Shown here one piece after another: positions 2,033-31,800 of a stretch of DNA of 53,757 nucleotides (position 1 is the first letter of the stretch; each line of letters opens with the position of its first letter). The notes beneath the pieces were generated by a model. That model was not told where the DNA came from. It saw only the letters and a program-made list of their open reading frames with translations, and searched no databases. The DNA is from Prorocentrum cordatum (Eukaryota): NCBI GenBank assembly GCA_963575745.1, contig CAUYUJ010000288.1, forward strand, positions 62,001 to 115,757, written 5' to 3'. The translations under genes and the position numbers were made by a program.

Positions 2033-3733
2033 AGAGGAAGAGGAGGAGGAGGAGGAGGAGGAGCCGAAGGAGGGGGAGGAGGAGCCAGGAGGAGGAGGAG
2101 GAGGAGGAGAGAGGAGGAGGAAGAGGAGAGGAGGAGGAGGAGGAGGAGGAGCAGGAGGAGGAGGAGGAGAAGGAAGGTGGAGGAGGAGGAGGAGGAGGGA
2201 GGAGGAGGAGGAGGAGGAGGAGGAGGAGGAGGAGGAGGAAGGGGGGTCTGGGTGCGCAATCCCCCGCGTCGCCCGAGGCTCCGCTGCGGGCCGCGCCGGC
2301 CGCCCCGCGGCCTCGCGCGGGCCGCGCGGGCGCGCGCCTGCAGGCCCTGTGCGCGGGCGGCGCGGCTGGCGCCTGGGCCGCCGCTCGGCGCGCCCGGCGG
2401 GCGGGCCCGCGCCGGCAGGCTTCCGTTTGGGGTTCGTCATTCTCCTCCTCGTCCTTCTCGTCCTTCTCCTTCTCCTCCTCCTCCTCCTCCTCCTCCTCCT
2501 CCTCCTCCTCCTCCTCCTCCTCCTCCTCCTCCTCCTCCTCTCCTCCTCGTCCTCCCTCCTCCTCCTCCTCCTCCCTCCTTCTCCTCTCCTCCTCCCCCAG
2601 ACCCCCTCGGGCGTGAGAGTCCATGTGGGGTTCGTCCTTCTCCTCTTCCTCGTCCTTCTCCTTCTCCTTTTCCTCCTCCTCCTCTCCTCCTCGTCCTTCT
2701 CCTCCTCCTCCTCCTCCTCCTCCTGTCCTCCTCCCCCAGACCCCCTTGGGCGTGAGAGTCCATGTGGGGTTCGTCCGTCTCCTCCTCCTCGTCCTTCTCA
2801 TTCTCCTCCTCCTCCTCCTCCTCCCACTCCTCCTCTTCCTCCTCCTCCTCCTCCTCCTCCTGTTCATCCTCGTCAGTTGCGCAGTAGGAAAACGTCCAGA
2901 AGATATCCGGCCCCCCTCCGCGTAGTGTGTTTTTACACGGGATTCCCAGGACATGGTTTTCGCTGTTTTTTGTTCAAGATGTTGCTCCCGCTGAAGCGCT
3001 GGCCTCATCTTCGGGCTTCCGCTCGTTCCGAATCGTGCTCCCGCTGCAGCGTTGGCTTTCCTTCGCGCTGCCTTCCTTTCCAAATAGGCTCCAAAATCTA
3101 GAAAATGGCTCCCCGAAAAAACCATCGGAAGTGATTACACATTCGGTGTCGATTCGTTGATTTCTTATGCCGCAGAAGCCCCACCCGCCACTTTGGAGCG
3201 TCGTCGTTTTCAGTCAGTATGAAGCGGGAGCTCCGTTTCTGCTTTGGGACGGCGATGTTGAAAGCAGAACCAGCGGGTGCTCTCCATCAGCCCCTCCTTG
3301 TGTGGAGCTACTCGGGGAGCCCAAGGAGCTAGACATGCAACCACGATTCCAGACCGACCACACCTTTCGAAGACGATCCATTTACCATCCAAGAAACCCG
3401 GCGCCATGCCATGACATGCTGAGCGGTGTTGTGTTCTGCGCCGCTGTGCGATGCCATGCTTTGCGTTGCAATTCTTTGTGATGCAATACCTCACTGCGCA
3501 ACGCCACGCCATGCTGTAGCATGCAACGCTTTGCCGTGCTCTTCTACGCCATGCCATGCCGTGCTCTACCATGCATCGCGCACCATCTCGCGAGAATCGC
3601 CCTGCTCGGCATCCGACGGAGCGAACAGACAGGATATCTACGGAATGGTAAGGGATGGGAGGGAGGGGTAGGACGTCAGATATGACGCGGGCGCACCTAG
3701 CTTGTCCTCTCCTCCTCCGCCTCATCCTCCTCC

Positions 3734-4451
3734 ATTTCTTTTCCTTATAACTGATCTGTCCCTGTCGGGAAGGAGTTGTAAGGACAGGCAAGTTTTTAGG
3801 GCGGGCCAGGGGTTTCGCCTGAGACTTTCTCACCACTTATGACTCTGAAGGCTTAAACAGTGACAGCAACTTCACAGATGGAGGGCGGGTCGTTTTCAAA
3901 ATGTGGCTCTCGCCTTAGCTATTAGCGCCGCGCACACTCGTTTATACAAGTTGCAATGGCTTCACGGATTGAGGGCGGGCCGTTTTCAATGCGTGGCTCT
4001 CGCCTCAGCGCCGCGCACATTTGTTTGTACAATTTGGAGGAGCTTCACGGATTGAGGGCGGGTCGATTTCAAAATGTGGATGTCGCCTCAGCGCCGCGCA
4101 CATTCGTTTATACAATTTGTAATAGTTTCACGGGTCGAGGGCGGTTCCCTTTCAACATGTGATTCCAATGATCAGCGTACCTGACATGGTGCTTGTTGGA
4201 AGGATTCAGGATTATGCGGGTGCAACAGTTATGTTGATTCGCGGTGCTGATGTCCCAGAAACGGCGTTCTGGCACGATTCCGGATCGCAAGAACGCAGCA
4301 GATGTATTGGCATGGCGCAGGATCTTCAAACGGCTGTCTTCCAACGAGGCAATTCCCGCAATGGAAATGAACCGTTGTAGGGGCCTATGAAGAGGGAGCT
4401 TGGAGGGAGGGTTATTTTCAACATCGTTGATGACTCTTGGGTTTACACAGG
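3734..4451 (-). repeat. Same element, inverted copy with fewer minisatellite units
   Basis: Reverse-complement termini and internal units. Confidence 0.85.
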
Positions 4452-6009
4452 TCCTCCTTCTCCTACTCGTCCTTCTCCTCCTCCTCTTCTTCCTCCTCGT
4501 CCGACGACGACCCTGAGATCCTGGCGTCCCAATTTGTTCGAGCCATGCGTTTTCGTTTCTTTTCGGGCCCCACGGCCCTCACAGGTCGATCCGGAACGGA
4601 AATGACGCAGCAAGGTGGGGCCTAGGGCTCTGGGCGTGATCTTTTACGATGTTGCAATGTGTTCGCGACATCGGATCTCAGGGAAGGTTTTTCCATATCT
4701 TCGGCCTCTGGAGGCCCTGGGACGAACAACAAAAACGATCCCGGGGAAAGGGTCCAGACTTCCAGGGGTCGACGCTGTGAACAAAAACGCGACGTCGGGA
4801 ATCTGGGTTTGGGGCTCGCTATTTACGGACTTGTAGTTCCGAGCGAGATGTTGGTCAGGCGGGGCGCTGGCGGAGGAGGTCGTCTTGATCTGTAGTGCGC
4901 GTGCGGTGTGAGTTGTTGTTGGCCCCCTTTGCGTCTTGCGATCCACTGCCCACCCCGGAAGTGCGTGGCGCAGGACCGCACTGTGAGTGGTTATGTTCGG
5001 GTGCTCACAGGGGTTTGCCTTCTGGCTGCGAGCCAGATTGCATCGACAAGTATCAGCTTCTCAGACCCCGTCGGGTCATGAAAACATAATACCCTGAGGT
5101 TGTTCGCTATGTTCTGCTTCCCGGGGCCCTCATAACGGGTCCTCGAGGCCGTCCAAAACTGGCTCCGGGTGAACAACTGGTTTCGAGGATTGGGTCCAGA
5201 CCGCTGGGGGTCCGCGTCATGAACAGATGCGACGCCGGAGGTCTGGGTTCGGGCGTTGCTAGCGAAGTGCCCGTGGTGTCTCTCTGACATCGCCTCCGCG
5301 CAGGAGTGGCCCTTCGCCAGGGTGACCTTCCAAGAGGTCCGCGGCTCCAGAAGAATGGGGGCGGTCGGTTTTCGGTTGTCTTCGCCCTCCGGGGGCCCTC
5401 GACGGGCGGCGGGGCCGTCAAAGCATGGTCCGGAACGACATGCCAGCCCGGGGGAAGTTGTCCAGACCTCCAGGAACCCACGCGTCGAACAAGTTCGGGC
5501 GCTTGATGTCTTGCTCTGGTGCGGGCCCACAGGGAGTCCCACGATCGCTGCATGCGATGCGGCAGCAGAAGCCTGCACGCCTGTGTTTGGCATCCCCGAG
5601 CCCCTCTGGAAGGCGCGCACCAAGGATCACTCTTGCCTAGGGTCACTTCGGGCATTGCCAGCTGAGTTCGGGGAGCAAGCAGTAGTGACATGACCATGCA
5701 CTTTTGGAGGTCCGCGTGGACTTCTTGGATCGGCGCTGGGGCCTCCTGGCGGCGCCTCCGTCGCCGCCCCTGGCGCGCTCCATACGCCAGCAAAGAGGTC
5801 CAGCGCTGATCCAAGAAGTCCGCCTGGACCTCCACACGTTTATCCGTAAGAGCTTCGCCCCCTGCTGCCGGCCCCCCTCTCTTAGAATGGGACTTGCCAG
5901 AGCTGTGTTGGGATGTCTGGACGCTGACGTGAAGCAATGTGGGGAGAGGGCCTTGTACGGCTTGCACCGCAAACCTGAAGAACTGCGTTCGAATTCTGAC
6001 AGGAGGGAT

Positions 6010-7285: not shown

Positions 7286-8159
7286 GCCTTGGCTCCGCTT
7301 CCTCCGCGGCCTCGTCCGGCGCAGCAGCCCCCCATTAGGGGCTGAACTCTCCTTGATCGTCCTCCCGACGAAGGCCTCCCAGCAGTCTCTTGCTATGTCC
7401 CTGGCCACGGGGCGGTCGCCCGTCGTGTGGCCTGTGCCTCCTCCTCGTCCTCCTCCTCCTCCTCCTCCTCCTCCTCCTCCTCCTCCTCCTCCTCCTCCTC
7501 CTCCTCCCCCTCCCCCTCCTCCTCCCCCTCCTCCTCCGCCTCCGCCTCCTCCTCCTCCTCCTCCTCCGCCTCCGCCTCCGCCTCCTCCCTCCCTCCTCCT
7601 CCTCCTCCTCCGTATGTCTGGGCCGGTGCTCTGGACCCAGACCCCGGGGCTGTGCCTCCTAGCCCATGGGGCCACGGGGCGGTCGCCCGTCGTGTGGCCT
7701 GTGCCTCCTAGCCCATGAGGCTGCTGGAGGTCTTCTTTCGGTCAGTGAGGTCTCCCTCACTGCCAGCAGCGCTGTCCCAGCCGCCGCTGCTGTGTTCACC
7801 AGGGCTGTGCGGGCGTGGAGCTCAAACAAAAAGCCTCCCAGCAGTCGCCTCCCGAATGTCTGGGCCGGAGCTCTGGACCCAGACCCCCGACATCGCGATC
7901 TTGTTCACAGCGTCGACCCCCCGAGGCCTGGACCCCTCTGCCGCCCTCCGCGGGAGCGGCTCCTCATCCCGAGCCGTTGTTTGACGGCCCCGAGGCCCCG
8001 TAAGGGCTCCCCCGAGGCCGAAAATATACGGAAACCTCCCGTCCCGATTTTTGTATGACGCGATCGTGTCCAGGAAGACCTCCCAGTGGTCGCCTCCTGA
8101 ATTCTTGGGTCGGTGCTCTGGGGGCCACCTGGGCCTCCCGGGGAGTCCACCCTGGGCCC

Positions 8160-9101: not shown

Positions 9102-10163
9102 GGGAGGGAGGGGGAGGAGGAGGAGGAGGAGGAGGAGGAGGAGGAGGAAGGAGGGAGGAGGAGGAGGGAGGAGGAGGAGGAGGAGGAGGAGGAGGAGGAG
9201 GAGGAGGAGGCGGAGAGACGAGGGACGAGGAGGAGAGGAGGACGAGGAGGAGAGGAAGGACGAGGAGGAGGGACGAGGAGGACGCGGAGGACGAGAGACG
9301 AGGAGGAGACGAGGAGGACGAGGAGGACGAGGGAGGGACGAGGAGGACGAGGAGGGGCCGAGGAGGAGGAGGGGAGGAGGAGGAGGAGAGGAGGAGGAGG
9401 AGGAGGAGGAGGAGGAGAGGAGGAGGAGGAGGAGGAGGAGGAGGAGGAGGAGGAGGAGGAGGAGGAGGAGAGGAGGAGGAGGAGGAGGAGGAGGAGAGGA
9501 GGGGTGGGGAGGAGGGAGGAGGAGGCGGGAGGAGGAGGAGGAGGAGGAGGAGGAGGAGGAGGAGGAGGAGGAGGAGGAGAGGACGAGGGAGAGAGGAGGA
9601 GGAGGATGGAGGAGGAGGAGGAGGAGGAGGAGGAGGAGGAGGAGGGGAAGGAGGGGGAGAGAGGGGGAGGGGGAGGAGAGGGAGGAGGAGGAAGGAGCGA
9701 GGAGGAGTGAGGGGGAGAGGAGGGGAGGAGGGGAGGAGGGGGAGAAGGAGGAGGAGGATGAGGAGGAGGAGGAGGAGGAGGAGGAGGAGGAGGAGGAGGA
9801 GGAGGAGGAGGAGGAGGAGGAGGAGGAGGAGGAGGGGAGGAGAGGGAGGAGGACGAGTGAGGGACGAGGAGACGAGGAGTGCAGGAGGAGGGAGGAGAGG
9901 AGGAGGAGGAGGAGGAGGAGGGGGAGGAGGGGAGGAGGGGGAGGATGGGGGAGGAGGGGGAGGATGGGGAGGAGGGGGAGGAGGAGAGGAGGAGGAGGAG
10001 GAGGAGGAGGAGGAGGAGGGGGAGGAGGAGAGTAGGAGGAGGAGGAAGAGGGGAGGAGGAGGAGGAGGAGGAGGAGGAGTAGGAGGAGGAGGAGGAGGAG
10101 GGGAGGGGGAGGGAAGGAGGAGGAGGAGGAGGAGGAGGAGGAGGAGGAGGAGGAGGAGGAGGA
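9102..10163. repeat. Long imperfect (GGA)n tract
   Basis: Direct inspection. Similar tracts at 2033-2240, 2442-2860, 7437-7610, 12380-12803, 14457-14763, 16034-16113, 22190-22400, 24508-25398, 30180-30843, 34950-35365, 45084-45238 and 51729-51830. Confidence 0.95.
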
Positions 10164-12036
10164 CCAGTGTAAGCCCAAGGGTCATCAACGATGTTGGAGT
10201 AAACCCTTTTTCCAAGCTCCCCCTGCATAGGCCCCTACAACGGTTCATTTCCATTGAGGGAGCTGCCTCCTCGGAAGACACCCGTTTGGAGACCCTGAAC
10301 CATGCCAAAACATTGTTCTCGGAAGCCAGCGCCACGGACAAACCTGCATGTTGCGTCTTGACGATCCTGAATCGTGCCAGAACGCCATTCCGAGGACTTC
10401 AACACAGAGAATCAACCTGACTGTTGTACTCAATCCTTCCAAAACGCCATTTCTGGTACGTTGATGATGGGAACCCGTGAAACTTTTATGAACGTTGTAA
10501 ACGAATGTGCGCGGCGCTAGGGCGAGAGCCACATCTTGAAAAAGAACTGCCCTCAATCCTTGAAGCTCCTGCAGTTTGTTTAAACAAATGTGCGCGGCGC
10601 TAAGGCGAGAGCCAAATTTTGAAAACGACCCGCCCTCGATCCGTGAGGCTCTTGCAAATGTTTAAACGAATGTGCGCCGCGCTAAGGCGAGAGCCACATT
10701 TTTGGAAAATCGCCCGCCCTCAACCTGTGAAGCTCTTGCAACTATTTTAAAACGAATGTGCGCGGCGATAAGACGAGAGAGCCACATTGTGAAAACCGCT
10801 CGCCCTCGATCCATGAAGCTCTTGCATTTGTTTAAAACGAATGTGCACCGCGCTGAGGCGAGAGCCACATTTTTGAAAACCACCCGCCACCCATTTGTGA
10901 AGCTGTTGCCAACACTTTAAACTTCAGAATCATCAGTGGTGAGGGAGTCTCAGGCGAAACGCCCGGCCCGCCCTAAAAACTTGGCTTCGGGCTGCGACAG
11001 GGAGAAGTTATGTATAAGGAAAAGGAATGGAGGAGCAGGAGGAGAGGAGGAGGAGGAGGAGGAGGAGGTGGTGCAGGAGGAGGACCAGTGTAAACCCAAG
11101 AGTCACCAACGATGTTGGCAGCCACCCTCCCTCTAAGCTCCCTTTTCACAGGCCTCTACAACGGTTCATTTCCATTAAGGGAACTGCCTCGTTGGAAGAC
11201 AACCGTTTGAAGATCCTGCAGCATGCCATTACACTGTTCTCGGGACTTCAACGCCACGTATCAACCTGGCTGCCGCGTTCTTGCGATTCGGAATTGTGCC
11301 AAAACGCCATTTGGTGATTTCAACACCGCGATTCAACATAACTGTTGCACCCGCATAATCTGGAGTCCTTCCAAAACACCATCTTTGGTACGTTGATCAT
11401 GAGAACCAGTGAAACTTCTGCAGTTGTTTAAAACGAATGTGCGCGGCGCGAAGGCGAGAGCCACATTTTGAAAAGGAACCGCCCTCAATCCGTGAAGCTC
11501 TTGCATTTTTACAAAGAATGTGCGCGGCGCTAAGGCGAGAGCCACATCTTGAAAAAGAACTGCCCTCAATCCCTGATGCTCCTGCAGTTTGTTTAAACAA
11601 ATGTGCGCGGCGCTAAGGCGAGAGCCACATTTTGAAAACCACCCGCCCTCAATCCGTGAAGCTCCTTGCAAATGCTGAAAACGAATGTGCGCGGCGCTAA
11701 GGCGAGAGCAACATTTTGAAAACCACCCGCCCTCAATCCGTGAAGCTCTTGCATTGTTTTACAAGGAATGTGCGCCGCGCTAAGGCGAGAGCCACATTTT
11801 GAAAACGACCCGCCTTCAATCAGTGAAACCCTTGTAGGTTTTGAAAACGAATGTGCGCCGCGCGAAGGCCAGAGCTACATTTCGAAAACGACCCGCCCTC
11901 CATTCGTGCAAATTGCTGCCACTTTCTAAGCTTCAGAGTCATAAATGGCGAGGAAGTTTCAGGCGAAACGCCCGGCCCGCCCTAAAAACTTGCCTCGAGG
12001 TGCGACAGGGAGGATTTCTCGATAGGGAGAAGGAAT
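10164..12036 (+). repeat. Two tandem copies of the same element (10164-11028, 11085-12036) separated by a GGA tract
   Basis: Conserved termini; 5-6 minisatellite units each. Confidence 0.9.
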
Positions 12037-12037
12037 C

Positions 12038-12087
<50 letters not shown>

Positions 12088-14455: not shown

Positions 14456-14765
14456 GCTCCTCCTCCTCCTCCTCCTCCTCCTCCTCCTCCTCCTCCTCCT
14501 CCTCCTCCTCCTCCTCCTCCTCCCCCTACTCCCCCTCTCTCCTCTCCTCCTCCTCCTCATCCTCTTCCTCCTCCTCCTCCTCCCCTCCCTCCCCTACTCC
14601 TCCTCCCTCTCCTCCTCCTTACTCCTACTCTCCCTCACTCCTCCTCCTCCTCCTCCCTCCTCCTCCTCCTCCTCCTCCTCCCTCCTCCCTCATCCTCCTC
14701 CTCCTCCTCTACTCCTCAATCACAAGCTCCCCTACCTCCTCCTCCTCCTCCTCCTCCTCCTCCTA

Positions 14766-14941
14766 CAGTCGGGGCCCTGAACAAGGAACCCTTTTCGTTG
14801 GGGAGGGGCTCCGCGTTCCTTAAGTGTTTCACAGCTTGCCTCAGACTTTCCTCAGGTCTTCGATGGGACATCGAAGTTTAACTTATGGAAAATAGGGGCC
14901 TCGTTCCTTATTTGGGGTTCCTTAGGTCAACGCCCCGACTG
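14766..14941. mobile_element. 176-bp MITE, Tc1/mariner-like (TIR CAGTCGGGGC)
   Basis: TIR CAGTCGGGGC...GCCCCGACTG, flanks TA/CA; same-length sister copy at 18395-18570. Confidence 0.8.
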
Positions 14942-15984: not shown

Positions 15985-17667
15985 GCGACCGGCCGGCGGC
16001 GTCAGCGTGGAGCCTCTGAGAGCGCACGTTCGCGGAGGAGGAGGAGGAGGAGGGGGAGGAGGAGGAGGAGGAGGAGGAGGAGGAGGAGGAGGAGGAGGAG
16101 GAGGAGGAGGAGGAGCTCCCAGCGCCTTCCCCTCGGTGCCTTCGCCGCCGTGCAGGCGCCCGAGGTCTGGCGCTGTGGTCTTCTGTGAGGGCGGGCGGCG
16201 TTCAGACCCCCATCGCGTGGTGAAAAAGTCGCGATCCGGGCGGTTTTCCGCCGTTCTCGGCCTCTTTACGGGGCCTCGGGGCCGTCGAAAAAACGATTCG
16301 GGATGAAGAGCCGGTCCCAGGGGAAGGGGTCCAGACCTCTGGGGGTCGACGTGGTGACAAAAAGCCCCGCCGTCGGGGGTCTGGCGTCTCCACCTTTTCG
16401 AGCCGGGCGTTGGCGCTTCTTTTCAGGCCCCGGCACCCTCATAGATCGATCCGGCGCGACAAATGACGCAGAAAGATACACACTGCTCATCTCTAATGCT
16501 TCGAATACTGTTTGATTTCTGGGGGGCCAAGATCCTTTCATTTCTACTTGTTCTATCCTGAGCCTCTTCCTGGTCACTAGGGGGCCGGGAACAATTAGAA
16601 ACGGCCACACTTAGAACTGCGCGCGATTAGACATGAACGACGTGTAGGGTCCTTGCGTAATTCTTATGTGCGCGCAGAATTCGTATGCGCGCGCGCATAA
16701 TTCTTAAGTGCGCGCGCAGAATTCGTATGTGCGTGCCCTCAACTATGAGGCTGATAGGACTAAAAGGAGAAACAGAAAGCCAAGGTCCCGGGCCCCGGTC
16801 GCGAACGTTTGCGATGTTGCAGTGTTTTTGGTGCAGCGTCGGATCTCCGGGCGTGCGGGCGGCTCTCCAGACCCCCTCCGCGTTGTGCACAGCTATCGCG
16901 ATCCGGGTGGTGTTTTTCGCTGCTCTCGGCCTCCGGGGGCCTCTTTAGACGGGGCCTCGGGACCGTCGAACATTGTTCGACGTTGTTACAACGACACAGG
17001 ATGAAGAGCCGGTCCCGGGGAAGGGATCCAGACCTTTCTGTGTCGAAGTTGTGAACAGATCATGGTTTCGGGGGTCTGGCGTCGCAATTCTTTCGAGCCA
17101 GGCGTTTTCGCCTCGATCTTTTCAGGCCCCAGGACCCTCACAGATCGATCCGGCTCGACAGGTGACGCAGAGAGCTGGGGTCTAGGGCTCTGGGCGTGAT
17201 TTCTGCGTGTTGCAATTTTTGAAGCGTCGGATTTCAGGGTATCGTGTAGTGAAAAAGTCTTGGCGGGAGGAGGCTCTTCGCTACTTTCGGCCTCCGGAGG
17301 CCCTGAGCCGGCCCTCGGGACCGTCAACAGAGCAGCTCAGCATGGAAAGCCAGTCCCGGAGAAGGGGTCCAGAGCGCTGGCGCTCCACGTCGTGAAAAAG
17401 CCACGACGCCGGGGCTCTGGGTATCGGAGGGCACACGTCGTGCACCTACACCGATCCTGGCCAGATCCTGGGCCCAGGATCGGTGTACAGACCTTCTTGC
17501 CCAAGCCAGGAAGGTGTGTACACCGACCCCAGGCTCAGAGCCTGACCAGGAGTTGGAGGGCAACGTCCACCTGCCCCTGGAAGACCAACGCTTTTTAGCC
17601 ACAAGCGTCCATGCACACAGGATGTCGCTACGCACATAGACGCAGTCGGGGGCGGACGCGTCTCTAG

Positions 17668-17707: not shown

Positions 17708-17993
17708 GGTCGGAGCAAGGGCAGATGCGTCTATGGTATGTTCCTGTTCTAAAGCGGGGTCCTGCATGGTACTCCGAGCCAAGATCTGTGCAGGTGTCTA
17801 GAGGCGTCCTCCCACCGGAGCCCCAGACCCCACCCTTCCGGGCCAGCTCTCGAGCCGGATCCTTCTGTGAGGGCCCTCGGGCCCGCAGCCGGCCGAAGCC
17901 GCCCGTGAAATTGTGAAGACACCGCGGTCTGCCTGGATCTCAGGGTACACCGATCCACGGCCCAGAGCCTGGCCAGGACCGGTGCAGGCGTAT

Positions 17994-18157
17994 TCAGGAG
18001 GGGAAAAAACACACAGACACAATCAATCGTCGATCCCCCAGAAAGTATGGAAAGATATGGGAATTGAGGCGGGAAGACGAAGACTCAGAAAATACAGAAA
18101 AATATGGGGAATCGTTTGATCTGTGTGTGTTTATTTGTGTGTCCTTGGGCCCCTTCA
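17994..18157. mobile_element. Copy of the 5-bp-TSD introner-like element
   Basis: Same termini (TCAGGAGGGG...GGCCCCCTTCA); flanks CGTAT/TGTAT. Confidence 0.8.
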
Positions 18158-18180
18158 TGTATGAGTGGGCGTCCTCCCAG

Positions 18181-18379
18181 GGTGGTCATCGTCGGTGCTG
18201 GCCCTGGGGGCCTGGCGCTCGCGAGCTCGCTGTCCCGCATCCCGGGCCTGGACGTCCGGATCCTGGAGGCCCGGGCGGCCAACAAGGGCAGCGCCCGGTC
18301 CCACAGCATAGGCCTCGGCAGGAGGGCGAGGGAGGCCTTGATCGCCGTGGGCGGCGAGGAGCTGTGGCGCCGCGTCAAG
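18181..18379 (+). CDS. Exon: FAD-binding Rossmann fold (GxGxxG)
   Basis: VVIVGAGPGGLALASSLSRIPGLDVRILEAR..RSHSIGLGRRAREAL; acceptor cccag|G at 18180, GA donor at 18380. Confidence 0.9.
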
Positions 18380-21300
18380 GATCGGCTGCGCGTACAGTCG
18401 GGGCCCTGAAGAAGGAACCCTTTTCGTTGAGGAGGGGCTCCGTGTTCCTTAATTGTGTCGCAGATTGCCTTAGGTTGTCCTTAGGTTTCCGATGGGAAAG
18501 CGAAGTTTAACTTGTGGAAAAAAGGGGCCTCGTTCCTTATTTATCGTTCCTTAGGTCAACGCCCCGACTGTAAGAGTGACCCTTCGCAGGAGTGACCCTT
18601 GGTCCTGTCCTATGGACCCCCTCGAGCCAGGAAGCGACCACGACAGGAGGTGCCTCGCCGCTTTCGGCCTCTGGGGGCCCCTACACCGCGGCGGGCCTCG
18701 GGACCGCCAGAAACAGCGCCTCAGGACGAGAAGCCCTCGGCATCGCTCGGACGTGTGCATTTTTCCTTCGGCGAGGACCATCGAGGAGCATCCTTGATCA
18801 TTTGGCGAAAAGCCACGCACGAAACCGAACAAACACACAGGGAATGGACGTCCGAGCGATGCCAAGGGCGTCGGGGGCCCGCTGAGGCACTGGCTTGCGC
18901 GCTTGGGGCTGGTCCCCCCGCGGCCCCCCCGGCAGCCGCGCGCCGAGGCCCCGGACGGCGTGATTGTTTCGTGGCATGGGCTCCCAGATCTGGACAGCCC
19001 CCGGGACCGGCTTTTCGCCCCGAAGCGTTTCTGGAAGGTGCCGATCGGGCCGGTGCGGGGGCCCCCCGGAGGCCCCGGAGGCCGAGGGACCTCTCGTCGC
19101 GAGCTTTTCCACTTCGCGAGGGGGTCTGGGAGTGGCTCTCGGAAGGTACCCACGAGGTCCCAAGAGAGAGGCCCCCAGCACACCCCGAGTTTCAGTTCCA
19201 CCCCCCTCGGATCCTCGAGGGAGGTGCTGGGCCTGCCCCTCCGGTCCTCCCCTCCTTCCCTGCCCCCTCCATCCCTTCCCCCCCCCCCCCTCCTACTCCT
19301 CCTCCTCCTCCTCCTCCTCCTCCTCCTCCTCCTCCTTCTCCTGTCCAGGGCCACTCCAGCGTGTGGCCGAGAGGAGCAGGGGTTCGTGGCCAGTGGCTTC
19401 TGTCTCCACCTCAACGGCTTCGCCCTGGAGCTGCCGCCCCCCGAGGCCGGCCGGCGAGGTTCACCCAGACCTCCACCGCAGGGAAAGCTTTCGAGGCGAA
19501 GGTTTGCCGTCGTTCCCAGGCCCCCTCGAGTGGCGAAGAAGTCACGACCTATTTTTTTCGCTACCGTCGGCCTCAGGGGGCCCTGACCGGACCTCGGGCT
19601 TGTCAAAAAGCGGCACTGGATAGAAAGCCGGTCCCGGGGAAGGGGTCCAGACCTTAGGGGGTCGACGCTGCGAAAGAACCTCGACGTCGGGGGCCTGGGT
19701 ATTGAAAACATCGAGGCGCAGGTGTTGCATCGTCTTCGGCGTCTCTGGGCCCTCGCTGGGCCCCGGGACAGTCACAAAGAACGGCCTGGGACGAACCCTC
19801 GGTCACCGAGACGTGGCCCAGAGCTCTGGGGACTCCGTATTGAGGCTTACAGGGCCGACCTGCAGGTACCCTGGGAGGGGTTGTGAGGTTTTCCAAAAGT
19901 GGGGTCGTTGGTGCCATTATTATGGCTGTTGGATTAGGAGGTTTGGCCCTTGGCCTGGCTAAGGGCAGTGTAATTATCGGATTTGGGGGGGTGAGATCGC
20001 CGTGAAGCAGACTCGCCCAAGCGGGAAAACGATTTTTCGGTCTCGGCTCGTGTCGTGCGTGGTGTGCGTGCGAGGCGAGGCGATGCGAAGTTGCGCGAGG
20101 GTTTGCTGCAGTAGAGGCCGAAAGCCCAGGATGCGTCGTACTGGCCGCAATAGAGGCTGTACTGGGAGAGGTACTAGTTGTTGTGCCAAGGAGCTGTAGT
20201 ACGAGCTGCGTTAATATATGCAGAGTGCGTTGCAGTAGTAGCTCTTATGAGATCTGCATGTTTGGCCCCACTAGAAACTGCACGGGTCTGTAGTGAGAGC
20301 TGCAGGATTACCTGACGTAGGAGTTTCGGTGGGAGCTGTGCTATTGACTCCAAGAGGTTCTGCAATGGGAGATGTAGCCGGGGATGTAGTAGAGCTGCGG
20401 CAGACGTTGTAACAGATGTATCAACAGCTGTGGTACGAGCTGTAGTGGGAGCTGTGCGAGCTGTATTATTGTTTGTGGTATGATCTGACATCGGAGCTGT
20501 AGTGCGAGCTATGCTGAAAGCTGCGCTGAGCTGTAGAAGGATCTGTCGTAGGAGTTGTAGTGAGAACTGCGTTGCTGTTTGGTGTATGCATTGCTGTTGG
20601 AACTGTAGTGGTATGTGTAGGAGAGCTGCAACAGACGCTGCAGCAGGAACTGTATCAATAGCGTCGGTAGGAGCTGCATTGGGAACTATAGTGGAAGATG
20701 TGCGACTGGCTGTCATATGGATTGTAGTAGTATGTCGTAGGAGCTGTGCGGTGAGCTGTATTGATAGCTGTCTACTGGTTGTCGAAGGATCCGTCGCAGG
20801 TGATGCAGACAGACTGAGCATGCGACGAAACGGGACGGGGGCGGAAGAGAGCAATGAAGACGAGAGTGAAAGATCGGAGGAGCGAGAGTGGCCACGGAAG
20901 AAGAGAAACTGAAATCACCGAGCACGAGGCAACATGTATGATCACCTGGGGGGGGGCGCGAGCACTGATATATGTATATATTTACATAAGCATATATGTT
21001 TACACACGTACATACATACATGCACATATGTGTGTAACTATTATGCATGCACACATCTTTATGAAGTACATATACACGTATATGAACACATGCCAACACA
21101 TGTAACACGTAGTATATGCATATGTGCATCTACCTAGGTGCCAGAACATATGGAGAGGCACTGATCTACATTTGTTGTTTTTTGTTCTCTCTCTCTCACA
21201 CTACGTGTGTTAACACCTGGGCATACACCTACCAATATGTACATACCGCTCGATTGGTAAGTGAACATCCGTTTTGATGTCCCGATATGCGTCCACTCGT

Positions 21301-24300
21301 GAGATGTATTGTGCGTCCTGTGCAAATCAAAAATGGCGTCACCTCCCAAGCCTCCTGATGATCCGAAGCGCGGTCCATGAGGTATGGCTATATACAGACC
21401 TCGTCGCCCTGCCCAGGGGGAGCCCGTTGTGCTGGTGGACCGGTGGAAGATCTGCGAGGCCATCTCCGAGCACATCTCGGACGGGGCCAGGACGAGGATA
21501 AATCCGTTCCAGAGCGCTCCAGAACGCTTTCAGAGCGTTCCGGAACGCTCTGAGAAGGCCGCGGCGCCCGAGACATCCTCCAGAGGTGCCGGATTTTGGA
21601 GATTCTCGATTGATTGGGGATGCGAAAAGGTACCGATACCGCTACTCCCCGGACCTCTCCCAGGGTGCGTTCTGACCAAGATTTCGAGGAGAATCCAGCG
21701 GTGGCGACGAAGGCCTCCCGGGAGGCCCAAATATGGGGGAAACGAGGGAACGGTAGTGGTATGCGTACCTTTTCGCCCTCTCAAGATCAGGAGGGAAAGA
21801 AACACACAGACACAATGAATCGTCGACTCCCAGGAAAATATGCAAAAATATGGGAAGTGGGGGGAAGACAAAAACCCCAAGATATGGGACAAGCATTGGA
21901 GTCTTTTTAGTTGTGTGCATTTATTTGTGTGTCCTGGGGCCCCTTCGCAAGATTCACCCTCGCCCGAATTTGTCCTGGTCTTGGCTTCGTCTCAGCATCG
22001 CGTCGGTGGAGCACGCGCCGGGCACCACGATCGCGGTGGAGAGCGGCGTGCGGGTGAGCTCGGTGGACCTGGTCCAGAGGCGCCTGGCGCTCGACCGCAG
22101 CGCCGCGGCCCCGCAGGAGGTCGGGGGGAGAACGGGGTACCGATCGATGCCGCTGCTCGTCCTGGAGGGCCCTCGTCGCCGCGGGTCCCTCCTCCTCCTC
22201 CTCCTCCCTCCCCCCTCCCTCCTCCCTCCCTCCTCCTCCTTCCTCCTCCATCCCTCATCCTCATCCTCCTCCTCCGCCTCCCCTCTCCTCCTCCTCCCTC
22301 TCCCTCCTCCTCCTCTCCTCTCCTCCTCTCCTACTCCTCCTCCTCCTCCTCCTCCCTCCTCCTCCCCCTCCTCCTCCTCCTCCTCCTCCTCCTCTTCCTT
22401 CCCGCCCAGACCCCCTCGCGTCGTGAAAAAAATCACGCTGGGAGGCTTTTCGTTATTTTCGGCTTCCAGGGGCCCTCGCCAGGCTTCGGGGCCGTCGACA
22501 AAAAGACTCAGGATGAAAAGCCCGTCCCGGGGAGGGGGTCGACGTTGTGGGAAAATCACGACGCTGGGGGTCTGGGGTGGATTCTCCCCGAAGTTGTGGT
22601 CAGAATGCACCCCAGGGGGTGTCCAGGGAGCTGCGGTATCAGTCCCCGCTCGTCCCCGCAGGATAGGCGTCACCCCAACATACTAATACTATGTGCGAAT
22701 CGCCCCCCCGAGGGGCGACGCGCGCATCAAGATATCTCATATAATATGCGTCGTGGCGGGCGCTTTCTGGCCACACCGCTCGGGAAACGATGTACTATAA
22801 GATGGGTATACTTTAGGTTCGGGCCGGACGCGCGCCTCCAAGGAGGACATAAAGTATTAGTATGTCTCTGTGCGTCCCCCACAGGAGGAGGAGGGAGGCG
22901 TGCTGCGGAGCCTGCTCTTGAGCGGGGGCGGTAGCAGCAGCAGCGAGGACACCATGTCGTGGGATCTCCTGGTGGGGGCCAGCGGTGTGCGCTCAACGGT
23001 CCTCAGGAGGGAGAGAAAAAACATAGGCACAATCGATCGTCGATCCCCAGGAAAATGTTGGAAAATATGGGAAGGGGGGGGGGGGGAAGACGAAAACGTA
23101 TAAAATACCAGAGAACATAGGGAATCTTAGGACTTCTATGTACCTATGTGTCATGTGTGTGTCCCTGGGCCCCTTCAGGTCCGCCAGGCGATGAGTACCC
23201 AGTTGCCCGCCAGCGCCTTCGAATCAGAGGTAAAGACGCAGCCAGGTCGCTGGCAGGTGCTCAACATGGGCCTCCCGCCTGCCTTCGTGGCTGGCAGCGT
23301 GCACGCGATGGTAAACTCGAAGGCACCCTTTGGTCTCTTCTGCATCCCCAATATCACCGGCGAACACTGCATCATCGTATCCTGGAGCAACGAGGAGACG
23401 CCCGAGGAGCTGATGCGCGCGAAGACTCCGCGGGAGCTCGAGGATGCCATCCTGAAGTACTTCCCCAAGGTGGGCCACGTCCCCGAGGACGCCGCGAGGC
23501 AGTTTATCGAGAGCCAGGCCTCGAGAGCGGTGTTGAGTCGCTGCCGCCCGTTGCACGATGCAGATGCCGGCGTCTGCGTCCTCGGCGACGCCGCTCACGC
23601 TGTGGGCGGCGGCTCGCTGGGCCAGGGATGCAGTGCTGCGCTGCAGGACACCTTGCGATTGCCACGGTGGGCGCATCCAAAGGAGCCTGCCACTCGAAGA
23701 TTTCTCCACGGGCCTAACAGATTTCTGGGCGCTTTGCAACGCTTAGCATGTCGACGGCAAATGCGCCCCTAGACTTCCTGCAGAACCATGCTGTTCTGGT
23801 TTGCTCTCTTATGACATCGGACCGGCGGCGAGCGAGGGGGCGAAGTGAGAAGGGGCGGGCCTTCTCAGCAGGCCCGGAAGTCCCCTGTCATTCTGAGAAG
23901 TCTTCTAGAGCTCCCCTGGAGACAAAGAAAGCCTCTCAGAAGGCCGGAGGCCTTCTGAGAGGCCCCGCCGCCTTTCTGAGGAGGCCCTCTCCTTGTCACC
24001 TTTCCCCTCCTCGCTCGACGCCGATTGGGGACATGGCGTCTCCCGTGGCCGAGCAGGGGCGGGGGGAGCGGGAGGCAGAGGCGGGTGCGGGAGGGGCGGG
24101 ACAGCGGGAGGGTGGGCAGGGGTCAAGGGGGGGAGGGGGGGGGGCGGCGCAGGGGAGCCAAGAGGGCGAGGGTGAGGTGGGTGAGGTGGGGGCCAGGCCC
24201 AGATCCATACCAAGAGTCAAGGAGTCACCACCCACCAAACCACCCCAACCCAACCCAACCCGAAGGCCCCGAGCTGCCCAGGGGGGGGGGCGCGTCAGGG

Positions 24301-27300
24301 AACAGTCTGGGAAAAACGTGTGGAGCCCGTACCCCTCTCGACCCGAAATCGGGGTCTTCGGGTTGGGCTGGGGTGGACTGGCAGGTAGTCAGCGAGGGAG
24401 CCAGACATGTGGGGAGCACACGGGCGGGGAGGGAATGGGGGGCGGGAGGAAGGGCCCCGGCCGGCCCAGGCCCGAGGGCCTCCGGTGGCCCCTCGTGGGC
24501 TGGGCAGGGAGGGAGGGAGGGAGGGAGGGAAGGAGGGAGGGAGGGGGGAGGGAGGGAGGGAGGGAGGGGGGAGGGAGGAGGAGGAGGAGGAGGAGGAGGA
24601 GGAGGAGGAGGAGGAGGAGGAGGAGGAGGAGGAGAGGAGGAGGAGAGGAGGAGGAGGAGGGAGGAGGAGGAGGAGGAGGGAGGAGGAGGAGGGGGAGGAG
24701 GAGGAGGAGAGGAGGGGGAGGAGAGGAGGAGGAGGAGGAGGAGGAGGAGGAGGAGGAGGAGGAGAAGGAGGAGGGGGAGGAGGGGAGGAGGAGGAGGGGA
24801 GGAGGAGGAGGAGGAGGAGGAGGAGGAGGAGGAGGAGGAGGAGGAGGAGAGGAGGAGGAGGAGGAGGAGGAGGAGGAGGAGGAGGAGGGGGGGGGAGGAG
24901 GAGGGGAGGAGGAGGAGGAGGAGGAGGAGGAGGAGGAGGAGGAGGAGGAGGGAGGAGGAGGAGGAGGAGGAGGAGGAGGAAGAGGAGGAGGAGGAGGAGG
25001 AGGAGACGGAGAGGAGGAGGAGGAGGAGGGGGAGGAGGAGGAGGAGAGAGGAGGAGGAGGAGAGGAGGAGGAGAGGAGGAGGAGGAGGAGGAGGAGGGGA
25101 GGAGGAGGAGGAGGAGGCGGAGGCGGAGGCGGAGGAGGAGGAGGAGGAGGAGGAGGAGGCGGAGGAGGAGGAGGAGGAGGAGGAGGAGGAGGAGGAGGAG
25201 GCGGGCGGAGGCGGAGGCGGAGGCGGAGGCGGAGGAGGAGGAGGAGGAGGAGGAGGAGGAGGAGGAGGAGGAGGAGGAGAGGAGGAGGGAGGAGGAGGAA
25301 GAGGAGAGGAGGAGGAGGAGAGGAGGAGGAGGAGAGGAGGAGGAGGAGGAGGAGGAGGAGGAGGAGGAGGAGGAGGAGGAGGAGGAGGAGGCGGAGGTCT
25401 GGGAGGCGCGGGGAGCGGGCGAGAGGGGAGGGCTCGGGCCCTTGGCTGTCCTGATGCGCCCGTCTTGAGGCGCAGGGCGCGCCGGCCGTGTTCGGAGCGT
25501 TCGTGCTAGCATGCTGCGTGTTGGCTCAACGTGTTTGCCCACGTCTTGGCGATCGTATCGCGTCATTCTATCGGCGAGCGCGTTCCAACGCACGGCCACG
25601 GCCACCGAACCCCAGGGCAGTGGGGCCGCTACGCCCATGCTTTGATTGATAACAACGTCTTCCTTGTCTGCACGCGCGGGACGCTCCCGAGACAGGCTGC
25701 GAAGGGTCCGGCGCGGGGGCCTCGCAAGACGGCGACGGCCAAGTCCGAGACATCTTGCCGCTCTGTGCCGTCCGAGCCCCAGCCCTAACTTACTCGCAAA
25801 CGTTCGAAAAACACCTGTCTGCATTGATGTAAGTTATCGTAGATCCCCCGCGGGGATCCAGGCCATCTGCGAGTAGCTACTTTACGAGTCGTGGAACGCG
25901 CTCGTCGATTCTAGGCCTCCTAGATGGGGTCGGAGTAGATGGGGTCGGAGGATCGCGCCGCATCGCCGAGACATCGCCGATACGGCTCGATGTGCAGCCC
26001 GCTTTGCTTCACGTCAACGTCGCCGATGCATCGCCGAAGCCGACGATGCATCGCCGGTGTATCGCCGATGCGTCGCCGATGCATCGCCGATGTATCGGCG
26101 ATGCGGCGCGATCCTCCGACCCATCTACTCCGACCCCACCTAGGAGATCTCTAGTCATACATGCGTTTTCCGTCTTGCGCGTGGAGCTCCGTGCCAGTAC
26201 GCCACGTGTGGCGTGTTGCGTATCGGGGCGCAGCTAGGCTCAGGTCCTGTGCGAGTCTTCGGGCCGCGGAGCCCCGGTCTTTCAGAACCTCGTCTTGGGC
26301 GAGTTCCAGGCGGGGTCGTGGGTTTCGGTGGAAGGTCTCAGGAGACCCACCGCTTGTAGGACACAGAGGACACAGAGGCAGGGGAAGTTCAAGGAAGACA
26401 CTGGATGGTGGCAAATGGCGCCACCAGGTATTAAGGCCAGAGTTGTGGAGGTACGTTGGCACTTCTCCCTGCGGCCGTCGTCGTTGGCCGAGGGAAAGCG
26501 GGAGGGGGGGGCGGGGGGGAAGGGCGGGCGAGGAGGAGGCGAGGGGGAGGCGAGGGGGACGCAGCGTTCGGGCCGCAGGACGCCGCGGCGCTGGGCCAGT
26601 GCCTGCTGGATGCCCAGGCGGCGGAGGGGCTGCCGGAGGAGGCATCGGAGGGCTTCCACGCGGCCCTCTCGGAGGCCCTGGCGGCGTACTCCGAGCGGCG
26701 CGCGGAGGAGGGCTGGGCGCTGCTGGACCTCATCGAGCTGCAGGCCGCCAACGAGCTGCGCGCGGGCGCGCTGCTGCAGGGGCCTGTGGTGATGGGGTTC
26801 CTCATCGAGCAGGTCGCCCGTGGGTCCCTGAAACCCCTGGCCGAGCTGGGGTCGCGCATGCTCGGCGCGCGGCTGCAGAAGAACGAGAGCTTCATCAGCA
26901 GCGAGCTCGACGCGGTGCCCCTGCTGGGCCTCCTGCACGAGCGGGTGGCGCTGGGCACCTGGAAGCGGTTCTTTGACGGCGTGGCGAGGCTCAAGCCCGA
27001 CATGCAGACCGCGCTGATGGCCACGGACGAGCCGTACAGCGAGCTGGTGAACCGCAACACGGCGTGGCTGGAGCTGCTGCAGGTCTCGAGGGATTCCTTC
27101 GGGGCGCAGCAGGTGCAGGTCGTCCGCGGCATCGAGGTTCTGAGGCCGGAGGGCGCCAGCGGTACACCTGCACCGATCTTGGTCAGGCCGCTCCCGGGGC
27201 CCAGGTTCGGTGTGAACATACACATGTTTTTATATATACACGTACACTGAGATAATGCAATGGGTGGCACTATCATACAATACAAGACGATATGCTACAG

Positions 27301-28770
27301 CACAGCATTACAGAACGTAATGTATTATAGCACACTGCACTGCTATACAACTGACGGTTATATCCTATATCAAAGCATACCAGAGTATGATGTAATGCAG
27401 TATGATATGGCACAACATAACATTATACAACAGTATTGTACGTTGCACTATATTACGTCAGAATACTAAACAATAGTGCACAGCAGCATAACATGCATCA
27501 GCACATCATGCTACAATGCATTATGCAATACCATATTGTGTTACCCTATCAAGCAAGACAACATACCATAGTAGGATAGTATGTAGCGAACTTGGATATA
27601 TGTATATTACACACATATATATAAACAACTATACGTGTGTACGTATGCCGTGCCGTATCATCGCATATGACAAGAACTCATCGTGCAGCAGATGACATAT
27701 CAGGTAATATGGCAAATAAAGGTTTCGACAGTGCGTATGCAAACATCTATACAAACGTATACTATAATGCAACTACTAGTGCACCTTATGGCTATGTTTA
27801 ACATAGCACTGTCGATTAGAACAGTATGTATTGTATACTGCTATGCTTTCAGGTGGTAAAGTATTTTGACATTTGATATTCGGCAATGTACCATTATTCG
27901 AGATAGGATAACAACATACAGGACACTATAAACTAATATTGTGTCATACCATCTCGTATCATATATTACGAGATGCAACGACATTACACTACATCGTATT
28001 ATTATAGACGAGAGTGATACAGACACCTCTCTATATAGATGCATGCTTGCGTGTGTGTATGTATATATATATATATATATATGTTGCTGTATATACATGC
28101 GTACATTGATGTATACATATCAATACGCCTGCCTGGTCCGGCCAAAGCCAGGAAAGCGCATCTGCACCGATCCTGGGCTGAGGACGGACCTGGCCAGGAC
28201 CGATTGAGGTGTGTACGCTGGGCGCCCTCCTACGAGGGGCCTCCCGGACTCGACGCTGCTCGACTGGGCCGCGGCCTTCACCCCGCAGGAGCGGCTCCAG
28301 GGCGACGTCATCGTGCGCCAGGCGGTCTCGGTCAAGAGCTTCTTCGCCATCCGCTCCGGCACCTGCACGGTGCTGAGGGACGGGGCCGAGGTCGCCACGC
28401 TCGGCCCGGGCGACCACTACGGGGGCATCGCGCTGCTCCTGGGCGTTCCGAGCTCCACCTCGCTGGTGGCCTCCACCGACGCCGGCCTTCCTCACCCACC
28501 AAGCCACCCCAACCCGACCCGAGGGCCCCAGTGCGCCCTCCGTTCCCCGTGGGGGGTCGTCGGGGAACAGTAAAAAACATACAATTTGGGTCTTCGGGTC
28601 AGGTAGCGGTGGTCCGGTGGGGAGTCAGGCCTCCTCGAGATGCCGCGCGAGGTGTTCCTGCGCCTGGTGGAGAGGCAGGGGCCCGAGCTGCGGGCCGCGC
28701 TCTCCGCGCCGGCAGACCGCTTCCACCTCGGGCTGGACGGCGTGGCCAGCGAGCAGGAGCGAGAGAGACA

Positions 28771-28839
<69 letters not shown>

Positions 28840-31800
28840 GGTCGTCGTCGTCGTCGTCGCCGTCCCGGCAGGGAAGGCCAGAGGGGCTTCCTCGGTGGAG
28901 CGCGGGCGGGGCAGCAGGAGGATGCGGCGGCAGGAGGAGGAGGAGGGGGAGGTGGAGGAGGAGGAGGAGGACAACAGGAGGAGGAGGAGGAGGAGGAGGA
29001 GGGAGAACAGGAGGAGAAGGAGGAGGAATCGGAATCGTAATCGAAGGCATAATCGGAGTCGGAGTCGGAACAGCCGCGCGAAGTATATCAACAAGTGAAC
29101 GCCATCCCCTGCCGCCTCAACCATCGATGCACACGACGATGCCCGAGAATAGGAGCTGCAATGCACAGGGCGATGGAGTCCAGCAACACGTGCACGACTA
29201 ACACGACGAAGAAACCCAAGGAACAAGTGTTTGATACTTCGAATCGAATGAATTCCTCCCCACATGAACGCGGCCTCCACGCAGGCAACTAATTCACACC
29301 GCTTCGACAACAACAAGTATCTTCTATCCCGCACCAGCCACAAAAGTGCGGTACGACCACACGATACGAGCAACTCCCAATCCACCACGCAGAGCGAAGC
29401 GCACGAACAACACCGCGAGTCGAGACGACACAGTTCCGAACCACAACCACACAGCTGCGCCGGCATGCAACCCATGCACCTGAAGTGACGAAGTAGACTG
29501 GGCACCACCCTGGTACTATGCACGGTGATTTCGGACATGCGAAAACCAATTGGCCAAACAATTTTGAATGTTAGGGTACGCTGCGACTGCCCGCTCTCAC
29601 CAGGCGAGATTATCCTAGCAGTGCAGCAGCAGTAGCAGCAGCACAACAACAACACAAGAAACCAATCGAATCGTATGCCATGCCGTCCTTGGCGGTGAAC
29701 CACTTGGGCGAGCCCCTGGCCGTCCGACCACCAAAGAGGGCTGTATACCCACCAACAAATCCCATTATGTGAACAGGCTCAGGCCAGCATGGTACACTGC
29801 ACAAGACATGCGTTCAAACGTAAGCCTTTCACCTCCTCGCGGTGAGCCACGAGGGCGAATCTCTAGCTCTCCGCCCGCAAGGGGGGGGCGACGTACAAAC
29901 TGGCAGGTCCTAGTTTGTGCACTTACTACGAGCAACCCATTCTGAACTCACACCACCATATACTGACGCGCCGTGCCGGTATCCTCCAAGCTGTCCTGCC
30001 TCTGGCCAAGGCCCAGTCACCTACCAATCCTGGATGTCCAATCGCAGGAGGCATCACCTATGTCACCTCGCTTAGATTCAGCCACCACGATCGACAGTGC
30101 ACGGGCATTGCAGGCGAGTTGGCACTCGAGGACTCTCCTCTGATCCGTCCCTCTCCAGTCCCCCCCCCTCCGTTTACTTGTTCTCCTCCTCCTCCTGCTT
30201 TTCCTCCTCCTCCCCCTCCTCCTCCTGGTTCTTCTCCTCCTCCTCCTCCTCCTGGTTCTTCTCCTCCTCCCCCTCCTCCTCCTGGTTCTCCTCCTCCTCC
30301 TCCTCCTCCTCCTTCCAGGCTTCGTTCACTCCTCCTCCTCCTCCTCCTCCTCCTCCTCCACCTACCCTTCTCCTCCTCCTCCTCCTCCTCCTCCTCCTCC
30401 TCCTCCTCCTCCTCCTCCTCCTCCTCGTGCCCAGCGTGAAGGCATCGAGGTGCGACTCGGGGCCAAGGGATACGCTGGAGTGCATGCGGGAGCCTGGGCC
30501 ACATGTGCTCGAGCCCCGCCGCAGGAGCGGGGAGCCCCCCGCCGAGGGCGGCGCCGCGCAGGAGGAGAAGGAGGAGGAAAGGAGGAGAGGAGGAGAGGAG
30601 GAGAGNNNNNNNNNNNNNNNNNNNNNNNNNNNNNNNNNNNNNNNNNNNNNNNNNNNNNNNNNNNNNNNNNNNNNNNNNNNNNNNNNNNNNNNNNNNNNNN
30701 NNNNNGTGGAAAAGGAGGAGGAGGAGAGGGAGGAGGAGAAGGAGGAGAAGGAGGGTGAGGTGGAGGAGAAGGAGGAGGAGGAGGAGGAGGAGGTCGAAGA
30801 GGAGGAGGAGGAGGAGGAGGAGGAGGAGGAGGAGGAGGAGGAGGGTCCCATTCGAGGGCGCCCTGGCGCGCGCGCACGTGCTTCCGAAGGGCTCCTCCCC
30901 CTCCGTGCGCAGGAAACTGCGAGGAGCAGGGTGCGCTCCCTGCTGTCGGGCCGGCCCGAGCTCGCCGCCTGGGCGGAGGAGCACCTCGACGCGGCCGTCT
31001 GCGAGATCCACGCGGAGGGTGAGGTCTAAAAAAAAAGCGAAAGGCACAAGCTGTGAGTCGGGCCTGTCCCCCTACAGGGGGATATTTCGGCGAAAAATCA
31101 AAAAAATACCCCCAAAAATGGCCAAACAAGAATCCAAAAATAGTCTGGGGACTATTCTTTGAGTATTTTTTGGCCTTCTTGGGGTATTTCTGTTTTTTAT
31201 TTTTCGTCGAAAATCCCCCTGTAGGGGGACACGCCCGACATAACACAAGCTTACATTTTCGGAGGACCGCGCGGATTTCTTGGATCGCCGCCGGGGAGGG
31301 GGCTTCAGCGCCGATGCAGGGCGTCTGCGCGGAGCTCCGAGAGTTTTCGTCCGTGCAGTTGTTCTCTTACGGTGGGGGCGTTCGTCAAGGCATGTGCCCA
31401 GGATGCTTCAGGCCCCTGGAGGGTTCCTCACCTGATGATGGCGGCGGCGGCGGCATCCATGGCCAATCCACGATTGGAGTTCGACTGGCCTCCAGACCCT
31501 GGATTCCTTATCCAGGGGCTCCCTATCCAATGCCCTCACAGTATTCGAGGTCGTCACGCTGGACGAGCGAGAGAGCCTTCGACTCTTGGAGTGCGGGTCC
31601 GCCTCCGTGGTGCTCCGAGGCGCCGAGGTGCGCCGCCTGAGTCCTGGGGACTTCTTCGGGCCAGGCCTGCAGCCCGGGGAGCAGGTGGAGCGCTTCAGAA
31701 AGGGACTCGCCTGCGAGGCATCGAGGGGGTCCATCTCCTCCTCGGCGGGCGTCGGCGGAAGGGCGACGCAGGCCGGCGGAAGTCAGACGAGGCCCGCTCC

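Follow-up and report, generated by a model that had tools for sequence, protein, structure and literature searches.

Insertion of a short transposable element as the probable origin of a 180-nt spliceosomal intron in a monooxygenase gene of the dinoflagellate Prorocentrum cordatum

Introner elements were reportedly described by Huff, Zilberman and Roy in 2016 from Aureococcus anophagefferens and Micromonas pusilla, members of other eukaryotic lineages, where the families are said to comprise thousands of near-identical copies and to be associated with duplications of 3 and 8 nucleotides (nt). The systems closest to the one treated here are those of dinoflagellates, as they are described in the parts of the literature considered in this work. 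In Polarella glacialis, 12,253 element-derived introns fall into 15 classes with duplications of 3, 4, 5 and 8 nt, and in some of these classes the splice sites span the boundary between element and duplication (Roy et al., 10.1101/2020.10.14.339549). Co-option of the 5' splice site from the duplication is a mechanism known from thousands of dinoflagellate introns (Roy et al., 10.1101/2020.10.14.339549; Gozashti, 2022, PMC9860276), and families that co-opt the 5' site and carry the 3' site have been tabulated for Effrenium and Polarella (Gozashti et al., 2025, PMC12130899). In the genome of Prorocentrum cordatum, which has a G+C content of 59.7%, introns show an enrichment of "introner elements", introner introns being defined in that work solely by the presence of simple inverted repeats at the two ends of the intron (Dougan et al., 2023, PMC10666404). 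Here we describe a 180-nt intron of P. cordatum that consists of a 175-nt mobile element and one copy of the 5-nt repeat that flanks it, and that interrupts a gene for a flavin adenine dinucleotide (FAD) monooxygenase with a cyclic-nucleotide-binding domain. The intron lies in a stretch of 53,757 nt (contig CAUYUJ010000288.1, positions 62,001 to 115,757), which is referred to as the window and numbered from its first letter; the features discussed are listed in Table 1.

The first-pass annotation of this DNA had proposed that a 175-bp element between two GGTCC copies forms an intron precisely, the left copy supplying the GT donor (G/GTCC; in motifs the slash marks a splice boundary) and the terminal A of the element forming the AG acceptor together with the first G of the right copy. 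Both repeat copies can be read directly in the sequence, and the predicted junction, 22998/23179, is present in RNA-derived contigs of all four runs that were used. These are Logan contigs from four public runs of four studies (X15 and X16, which are polyA RNA-Seq, and X5 and X10, whose type is unrecorded), placed on positions 22420-24000, where contig cover is absent in parts, for example at 23109-23161. Runs X18-X24, in which the word share was small, were left out of account. In each run a single contig of 1.6-2.5 kilobases (kb) joins 22997/8 to 23178/9 and skips exactly 180 nt. The joint reads GT..AG at cut +1, and the five letters that fit on either side of it are the duplicated GGTCC. 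The loose ends of the contigs map to 22088-22117 upstream and to 26582-26611 downstream; since the neighbouring introns are thus also missing from the contigs, these represent spliced transcripts. Dinoflagellates carry processed gene copies, so that the contigs with the joint could conceivably come from DNA, but a copy of this kind would itself derive from the 22998/23179 splice.

Homology leads to the same junction. In a homology-guided scan of all GT, GC and GA donors and AG acceptors within 75 nt, 22998/23179 ranked first, with a summed score of 2491 versus 2453 for the next candidate. Removal of the 175+5 nt restores the coding sequence, as had been claimed: the spliced product, ...DLLVGASGVRST/VRQAMSTQLP..., is gap-free against 14 of 14 aligned orthologues, chosen from 22 protein matches, across DLLVGxxGVRSx/VR. 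This sequence we take to be the "DG" FAD-contact motif of flavoprotein hydroxylases. If the intron is retained, translation of the open reading frame (ORF) runs into an in-frame stop at 23101-23103. Homology to the sister copies of the element fills the intron from base +5 to base -2 and all other bases belong to the 5-nt repeat, so that no older intron sequence remains in it.

The element is a member of a repeat family. Exactly three full copies occur in the window, as found both by blastn and with an nhmmer profile built from the three copies (E 4.5e-47 to 2.9e-52); they are non-coding units of 161-175 nt with pairwise identities of 126/164, 118/161 and 126/161 (73-78%). When the three copies are aligned with 20 nt of flank, similarity starts at one common base (TCAGGAGGG) and stops after GGGCCCCTTC(A/G), and the flanks themselves are mutually unrelated. 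Copy 1, the one that forms the intron, begins with TCAGGAGGG and has a pyrimidine-rich 3' end, GGGCCCCTTCA, the last A of which is the first letter of the acceptor AG; the 3' end of the element (TGTGTGTCC..GGGCCCCTTCA) is in this way a ready-made pyrimidine tract. The same alignment confirms that the sister copies have duplications of their own, as the first-pass annotation had stated. The flanking 5-mers agree at 5/5 positions for copy 1 (GGTCC and GGTCC), at 4/5 for copy 2 (CGTAT and TGTAT, the mismatch being one CpG-to-TpG difference) and at 5/5 for copy 3 (CAAGA and CAAGA), and the three duplications share no common motif. In a chance control at these spacings, a 5/5 flank match was found at 1.0-1.3% of the window positions and a match of at least 4/5 at about 4%. 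The observed rate of 5/5 matches is about ten times the naive rate of 1 in 1024 because the window is repeat-rich, and the chance product for three flanked copies is still about 5e-6. With 44-47% G+C, the copies are AT-richer than their surroundings, the window having 60.8% G+C and an abundance of (GGA)n/(CCT)n arrays and of short dispersed repeats.

The two sister copies occupy other contexts. Copy 3 sits in an intron, 48 nt 5' of the exon starting at 21996, and the boundaries of that intron are not formed by it; the end of copy 2 lies 3 nt upstream of the gene's first in-frame ATG (18161), and the RNA contigs do not extend as far as this copy. As both are placed where no splice site forms, the unit moves independently of splicing. 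An additional ATG, which is out of frame, arises at 18157 (region 18157-18163) from the last A of copy 2 together with the TG of the right flank. All three copies share the sense orientation within 17994-23177 and none is present in the other 48 kb of the window, a clustering that could reflect local reinsertion, transcription-linked targeting or, with n = 3, chance. No further or truncated copies were found in the window by searches for the termini with mismatches or by nhmmer --max, and a fourth nhmmer match of the element profile (E 5.9) was set aside as spurious. Contigs of run X5 cover 23003-23108 at an identity of at least 90%, apart from the spliced transcript, which is a weak hint of more genomic copies of the element. 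A scan of metagenome contigs with the invariant 3' block (19 specified bases) returned a single locus, L001, which is coding-looking and otherwise dissimilar to the element and was taken as a chance match; a megablast of 22900-23300 against a phage collection gave no match and is uninformative.

We infer, with a probability of roughly 0.85, that the insertion of this element made the intron. In the proposed course of events, a short non-autonomous transposable element would have entered the coding sequence ...TCA ACG/GTC CGC... of the monooxygenase gene, where a staggered 5-nt cut would have led to the duplication of GGTCC. The target, which by chance read G-G-T, would have combined with the pyrimidine-rich tract and the CA end of the element to give, in a single step, a complete spliceosomal intron. 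Of its splice sites, the 5' one (G/GT) would have been supplied by the left duplication, and the 3' one by the CA of the element and the G that begins the right duplication; the next base is again a G, which would give the AG/G context preferred by dinoflagellates. Splicing would then take out the element and exactly one copy of the duplication (180 nt), leaving a scarless mRNA. Accounted for in this way, the element belongs to those Introners that recruit the target-site duplication for their 5' site and bring most of the 3' site with them. The identity of the host, a dinoflagellate and hence a member of a group with thousands of published introns of the same design, was counted in favour of an origin by insertion.

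Several points weigh against an origin by insertion. The copies are diverged by 22-27%; the insertion is therefore not recent and the family is old, and the description of the element as an introner "captured in place" holds for the exact element-made intron and not for the recency that the phrase suggests. The copies seen number only three, they lie within 5.2 kb in a single gene, and one of them forms an intron, whereas the Introner families published so far have been recognized from many introns in unrelated genes. For copy 1 taken alone, the G/GH of the repeat is partly the dinoflagellate splice-site consensus, and it is therefore the sister copies, which lie outside splice contexts, that carry most of the weight. 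The comparison with orthologues is one of protein and transcript sequences, and the gain at this position is a putative one. None of the DNA runs in the index contains the intron, the top word share being 0.73, about the level expected from the exons only, and the genomic presence of the intron thus rests on the window itself. Finally, neither inverted termini nor, among the ORFs scanned, a transposase match were found, and both the staggered-cut mechanism and the class of the element are putative.

The explanation that best withstands the evidence beside the preferred one differs from it by a single base. It invokes the same process with a 4-nt duplication (GTCC, GTAT and AAGA) and an element 1 nt longer that carries a complete CAG acceptor, as in the published design of Symbiodinium and of Polarella classes 4-5. 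Exactly such a design has been described for Symbiodinium (Roy et al., 10.1101/2020.10.14.339549; Gozashti, 2022, PMC9860276), GTCC and GTAT both match GHNN, and copy 2 could under this explanation formerly have been an intron too. The last base of such an element would however differ among the three copies (G, T and C), and in two of the three it is identical to the base that precedes the left repeat, as follows directly from a 5-nt duplication; the remaining case is a single CpG-to-TpG change. Furthermore, the published Symbiodinium families have terminal inverted repeats (TIRs), whereas none are detectable in this element. A 5-nt duplication (5/5, 4/5 and 5/5) fits the three copies, three copies only, better than 4 nt with a variable last base, and the shorter duplication is accordingly regarded as unlikely.

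Far less probable is that an older intron at the same codon boundary received the element and that later deletions erased all of the original intron sequence. Elements do land in existing introns of this gene, as exemplified by copy 3 and by a TA-flanked miniature inverted-repeat transposable element (MITE) inside another of its introns, and an old family would have had time for decay. Nevertheless, such a course of events needs deletions that end exactly at the first and the last base of the element, together with a coincidental 5-nt repeat in register across both splice sites, and all 180 nt are accounted for by element or duplication. It is hardly credible that the unit, instead of being a transposon, is an intron that multiplied through reverse splicing or intron transposition: copy 1 is efficiently spliced, but such a process would copy a whole GT...AG intron and leave no flanking duplication, while the sister copies are without GTCC start or AG end and each has its own 5-nt flanking repeat.

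As to the structure of the element, which we regard as a probable transposable element on the strength of its defined ends and duplications, TIRs were found in none of the three copies, the only inverted pair being an internal (CA)n/(TG)n pair in copy 2, and the match between the 5' end and the reverse-complemented 3' end is no better than in shuffles (p 0.12, 0.12 and 0.55 for the three copies). The RNA fold of the intron gives no structure signal (z-score 0.73; 150 of 200 shuffles fold equally well or better), and a scan of 58 of the 117 long ORFs in the window gave no match to a transposase family. The inverted termini and the diagnostic length or sequence of the duplication by which MITEs of known TIR superfamilies are recognized are lacking in this element.

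Compared with the families outlined at the beginning, and as far as the consulted passages of those papers describe them, the locus combines familiar and unfamiliar traits. As in Introner family 1 of Symbiodinium microadriaticum and in introner-like element (ILE) classes 4 and 5 of Polarella glacialis, a short non-autonomous element lies in a coding exon; the intron is made up of the element and one copy of the duplication, its 5' site comes from the left duplication and its 3' splice site lies at the 3' end of the element, an intron is formed in one orientation only, and excision is scarless. These Symbiodinium-like families differ in having a 4-nt GHNN duplication and TIRs that end at the 3' splice site, whereas here 5 nt is the better fit, inverted termini are undetectable, and the acceptor AG draws its A from the element and its G from the duplication. 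The distinction from the published Symbiodinium and Polarella families is drawn from their descriptions, not from their sequences. A 5-nt duplication is shared with ILE class 12 of P. glacialis, and a splice site that straddles the boundary of element and duplication occurs in its ILE class 9; in class 12, however, the duplication gives the 3' site (NAGGH or NNAGG), while here it gives the 5' site (Roy et al., 10.1101/2020.10.14.339549). The frame GGHNN is absent from the frames listed in the examined portion of that paper. With regard to P. cordatum itself, its published genome is that of a free-living species with long introns, GT, GC and GA donors and AGG acceptors, and the window agrees with it in having 61% G+C and a GA-AG intron; unlike the introner introns counted there, the intron described here lacks inverted ends and would go uncounted by that definition (Dougan et al., 2023, PMC10666404). 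The examined passages of the same paper contain no family-level description of P. cordatum introners, and the name Prorocentrum occurs 0 times in the 12 supplementary files considered, of 14, that accompany the work of Gozashti et al. (2025, PMC12130899). In the parts of these sources considered, no description was found of an element family with a GGHNN frame, a split acceptor and no inverted ends, and supplementary family lists could still hold one. The mechanism is thus already known, and the particular family, with its 5-nt duplication, lack of inverted ends and 44-47% G+C, is apparently undescribed.

The host gene has several exons and occupies the + strand from near 18161 to a point past 31600. 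Parts of it match dinoflagellate proteins, 800-940 residues long, which contain an FAD_binding_3 monooxygenase domain (PF01494) and a cyclic-nucleotide-binding domain (PF00027). The best match is a Scrippsiella transcriptome protein, with 71% identity over exon 23179-23649, and three of the 22 protein matches are named dinoflagellate ones, this protein and two of Effrenium voratum. A tblastn search with 11 orthologue N-termini (E up to 50) found nothing credible as upstream exons encoding an N-terminal extension. In nine of the 11 orthologues the N-terminus is extended by about 60-145 residues; the other two start near the Rossmann motif, as this gene would. An assembly gap of 100 N at 30606-30705 lies within the gene. 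The intron that follows the one described here (23647-26578; 2,932 nt) has a GA donor and an AG/G acceptor, backed by the loose ends of X15 and X10 contigs at 26582-26611, and these sites fit a dinoflagellate origin of the DNA; such GA-donor and AGG-acceptor usage has been reported in dinoflagellates, for example in Table 2 of Dougan et al. (2023, PMC10666404). This long intron is bracketed by GCAG/GAC (23643-23649 and 26575-26581), a 7-nt repeat that is in register with the splice sites and extends 4 nt beyond the AG/G seen at two other introns of the gene. The repeat may be a remnant of a target-site duplication that flanked a large insertion, since filled with repeats; a search for a repeat family at the ends of the 2,932-nt intron found none.

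Other repeats are present in and around the gene. An unrelated short element at 18393-18570, with a sister copy at 14764-14941 (88% identity between both), has perfect 12-nt inverted termini (TACAGTCGGGGC ... GCCCCGACTGTA) and is readable as a TA-flanked, Tc1/mariner-like MITE. It lies right at the beginning of the intron that follows the first coding exon, and its removal leaves CGC/GTAAGAGTG, a classical donor. Judging from the letters, the MITE seems to have inserted at the TA of a 5' splice site that was already present, the donor now being G/GTACAG; in the homology scan, the GT at 18391 and the GA at 18379 score closely as donors of this exon. A repeat of about 213 nt (22666-22878) with inverted ends of about 13 nt (ACATACTAATACT...) lies within the 765-nt intron 22120-22884. 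Many X5 and X16 contigs match it at 90-95% identity and break exactly at 22666 and 22878, with a depth of up to about 400 in X5, and it therefore belongs to an abundant, transcribed dispersed family. In the 2.9-kb intron, a 50-nt segment (23823-23873) is matched by many contigs in four of four runs, with loose ends on both sides and a summed depth of up to 655 (X5); the segment is part of another transcribed repeat of high copy number. At least eight copies of a dispersed repeat of about 110-150 nt occur in the window, 73-82% identical and on both strands, several of them in introns of the monooxygenase gene.

Table 1. Positions of the intron, the element family, the exons and the other repeats in the window.
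Feature	Position	Strand	Description	Evidence
Intron	22999..23178	+	phase-0 GT-AG intron, 180 nt: 4 nt of left duplication, 175-nt element, 1 nt of right duplication	joint skipping 180 nt in X15, X16, X5, X10
Upstream exon	22885..22998	+	ends ...DLLVGASGVRST	contig pieces 22883-22997 in four runs; translation
Downstream exon	23179..23646	+	VRQAMSTQLP...GDAAHAVGGGSLGQGCSAALQ; 60-71% identical to dinoflagellate orthologues	contigs, homology
Left target-site duplication	22998..23002	+	GGTCC; first G is the last exon base, GT at 22999-23000 is the 5' splice site	sequence, RNA joint
Element copy 1	23003..23177	+	175 nt, 47% GC	blastn, flank alignment, nhmmer E 4.5e-47
Right GGTCC copy	23178..23182	+	first G completes the acceptor AG; GTCC from 23179 resumes coding (Val-Arg)	
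Sister copy 2	17994..18157	+	flanks CGTAT (17989-17993) and TGTAT (18158-18162)	blastn, nhmmer, alignment
Sister copy 3	21787..21947	+	flanks CAAGA (21782-21786) and CAAGA (21948-21952)	blastn, nhmmer, homology scan
Exon for cyclic-nucleotide-binding domain	~28208-28570	+	before the N gap	
Last matched exon	~31460-31693	+	after the N gap	
Dispersed ~110-150-nt repeat copies	1-113, 703-848, 7877-8021, 16268-16384, 17277-17424, 19554-19702, 22440-22580, others			
Longer composite repeats	1055-2062, 3705-4498, 10108-12075, 44034-44541			

In all, the intron is probably a base-exact, RNA-verified case of intron birth through transposon insertion. It interrupts the strongly conserved catalytic DG motif of flavoprotein monooxygenases, where imprecise splicing would be lethal to the protein. 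The route by which a duplication becomes a splice site would thus also operate in a high-G+C dinoflagellate genome of a type in which introner introns have so far been counted by inverted-repeat ends only, and a criterion of inverted ends would miss families without them. A broader proposal joins an undescribed Introner class of a free-living dinoflagellate of high G+C content, with 5-nt duplications and no inverted termini to local or transcription-coupled reinsertion and to long introns that were born by insertion; as a whole it is speculative, and we consider it more doubtful than not. If it were true, an acceptor formed from the element's own terminal A and a target G would mean that only sense-orientation insertions into targets starting with GGH give viable exon insertions, and the 7-nt in-register repeat at the neighbouring 2.9-kb GA-AG intron would mean that even very long introns began as insertion-made ones. 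The current picture of intron gain is unchanged by this case, the value of which lies in being well resolved and in providing a seed for a genome-wide search for the family.

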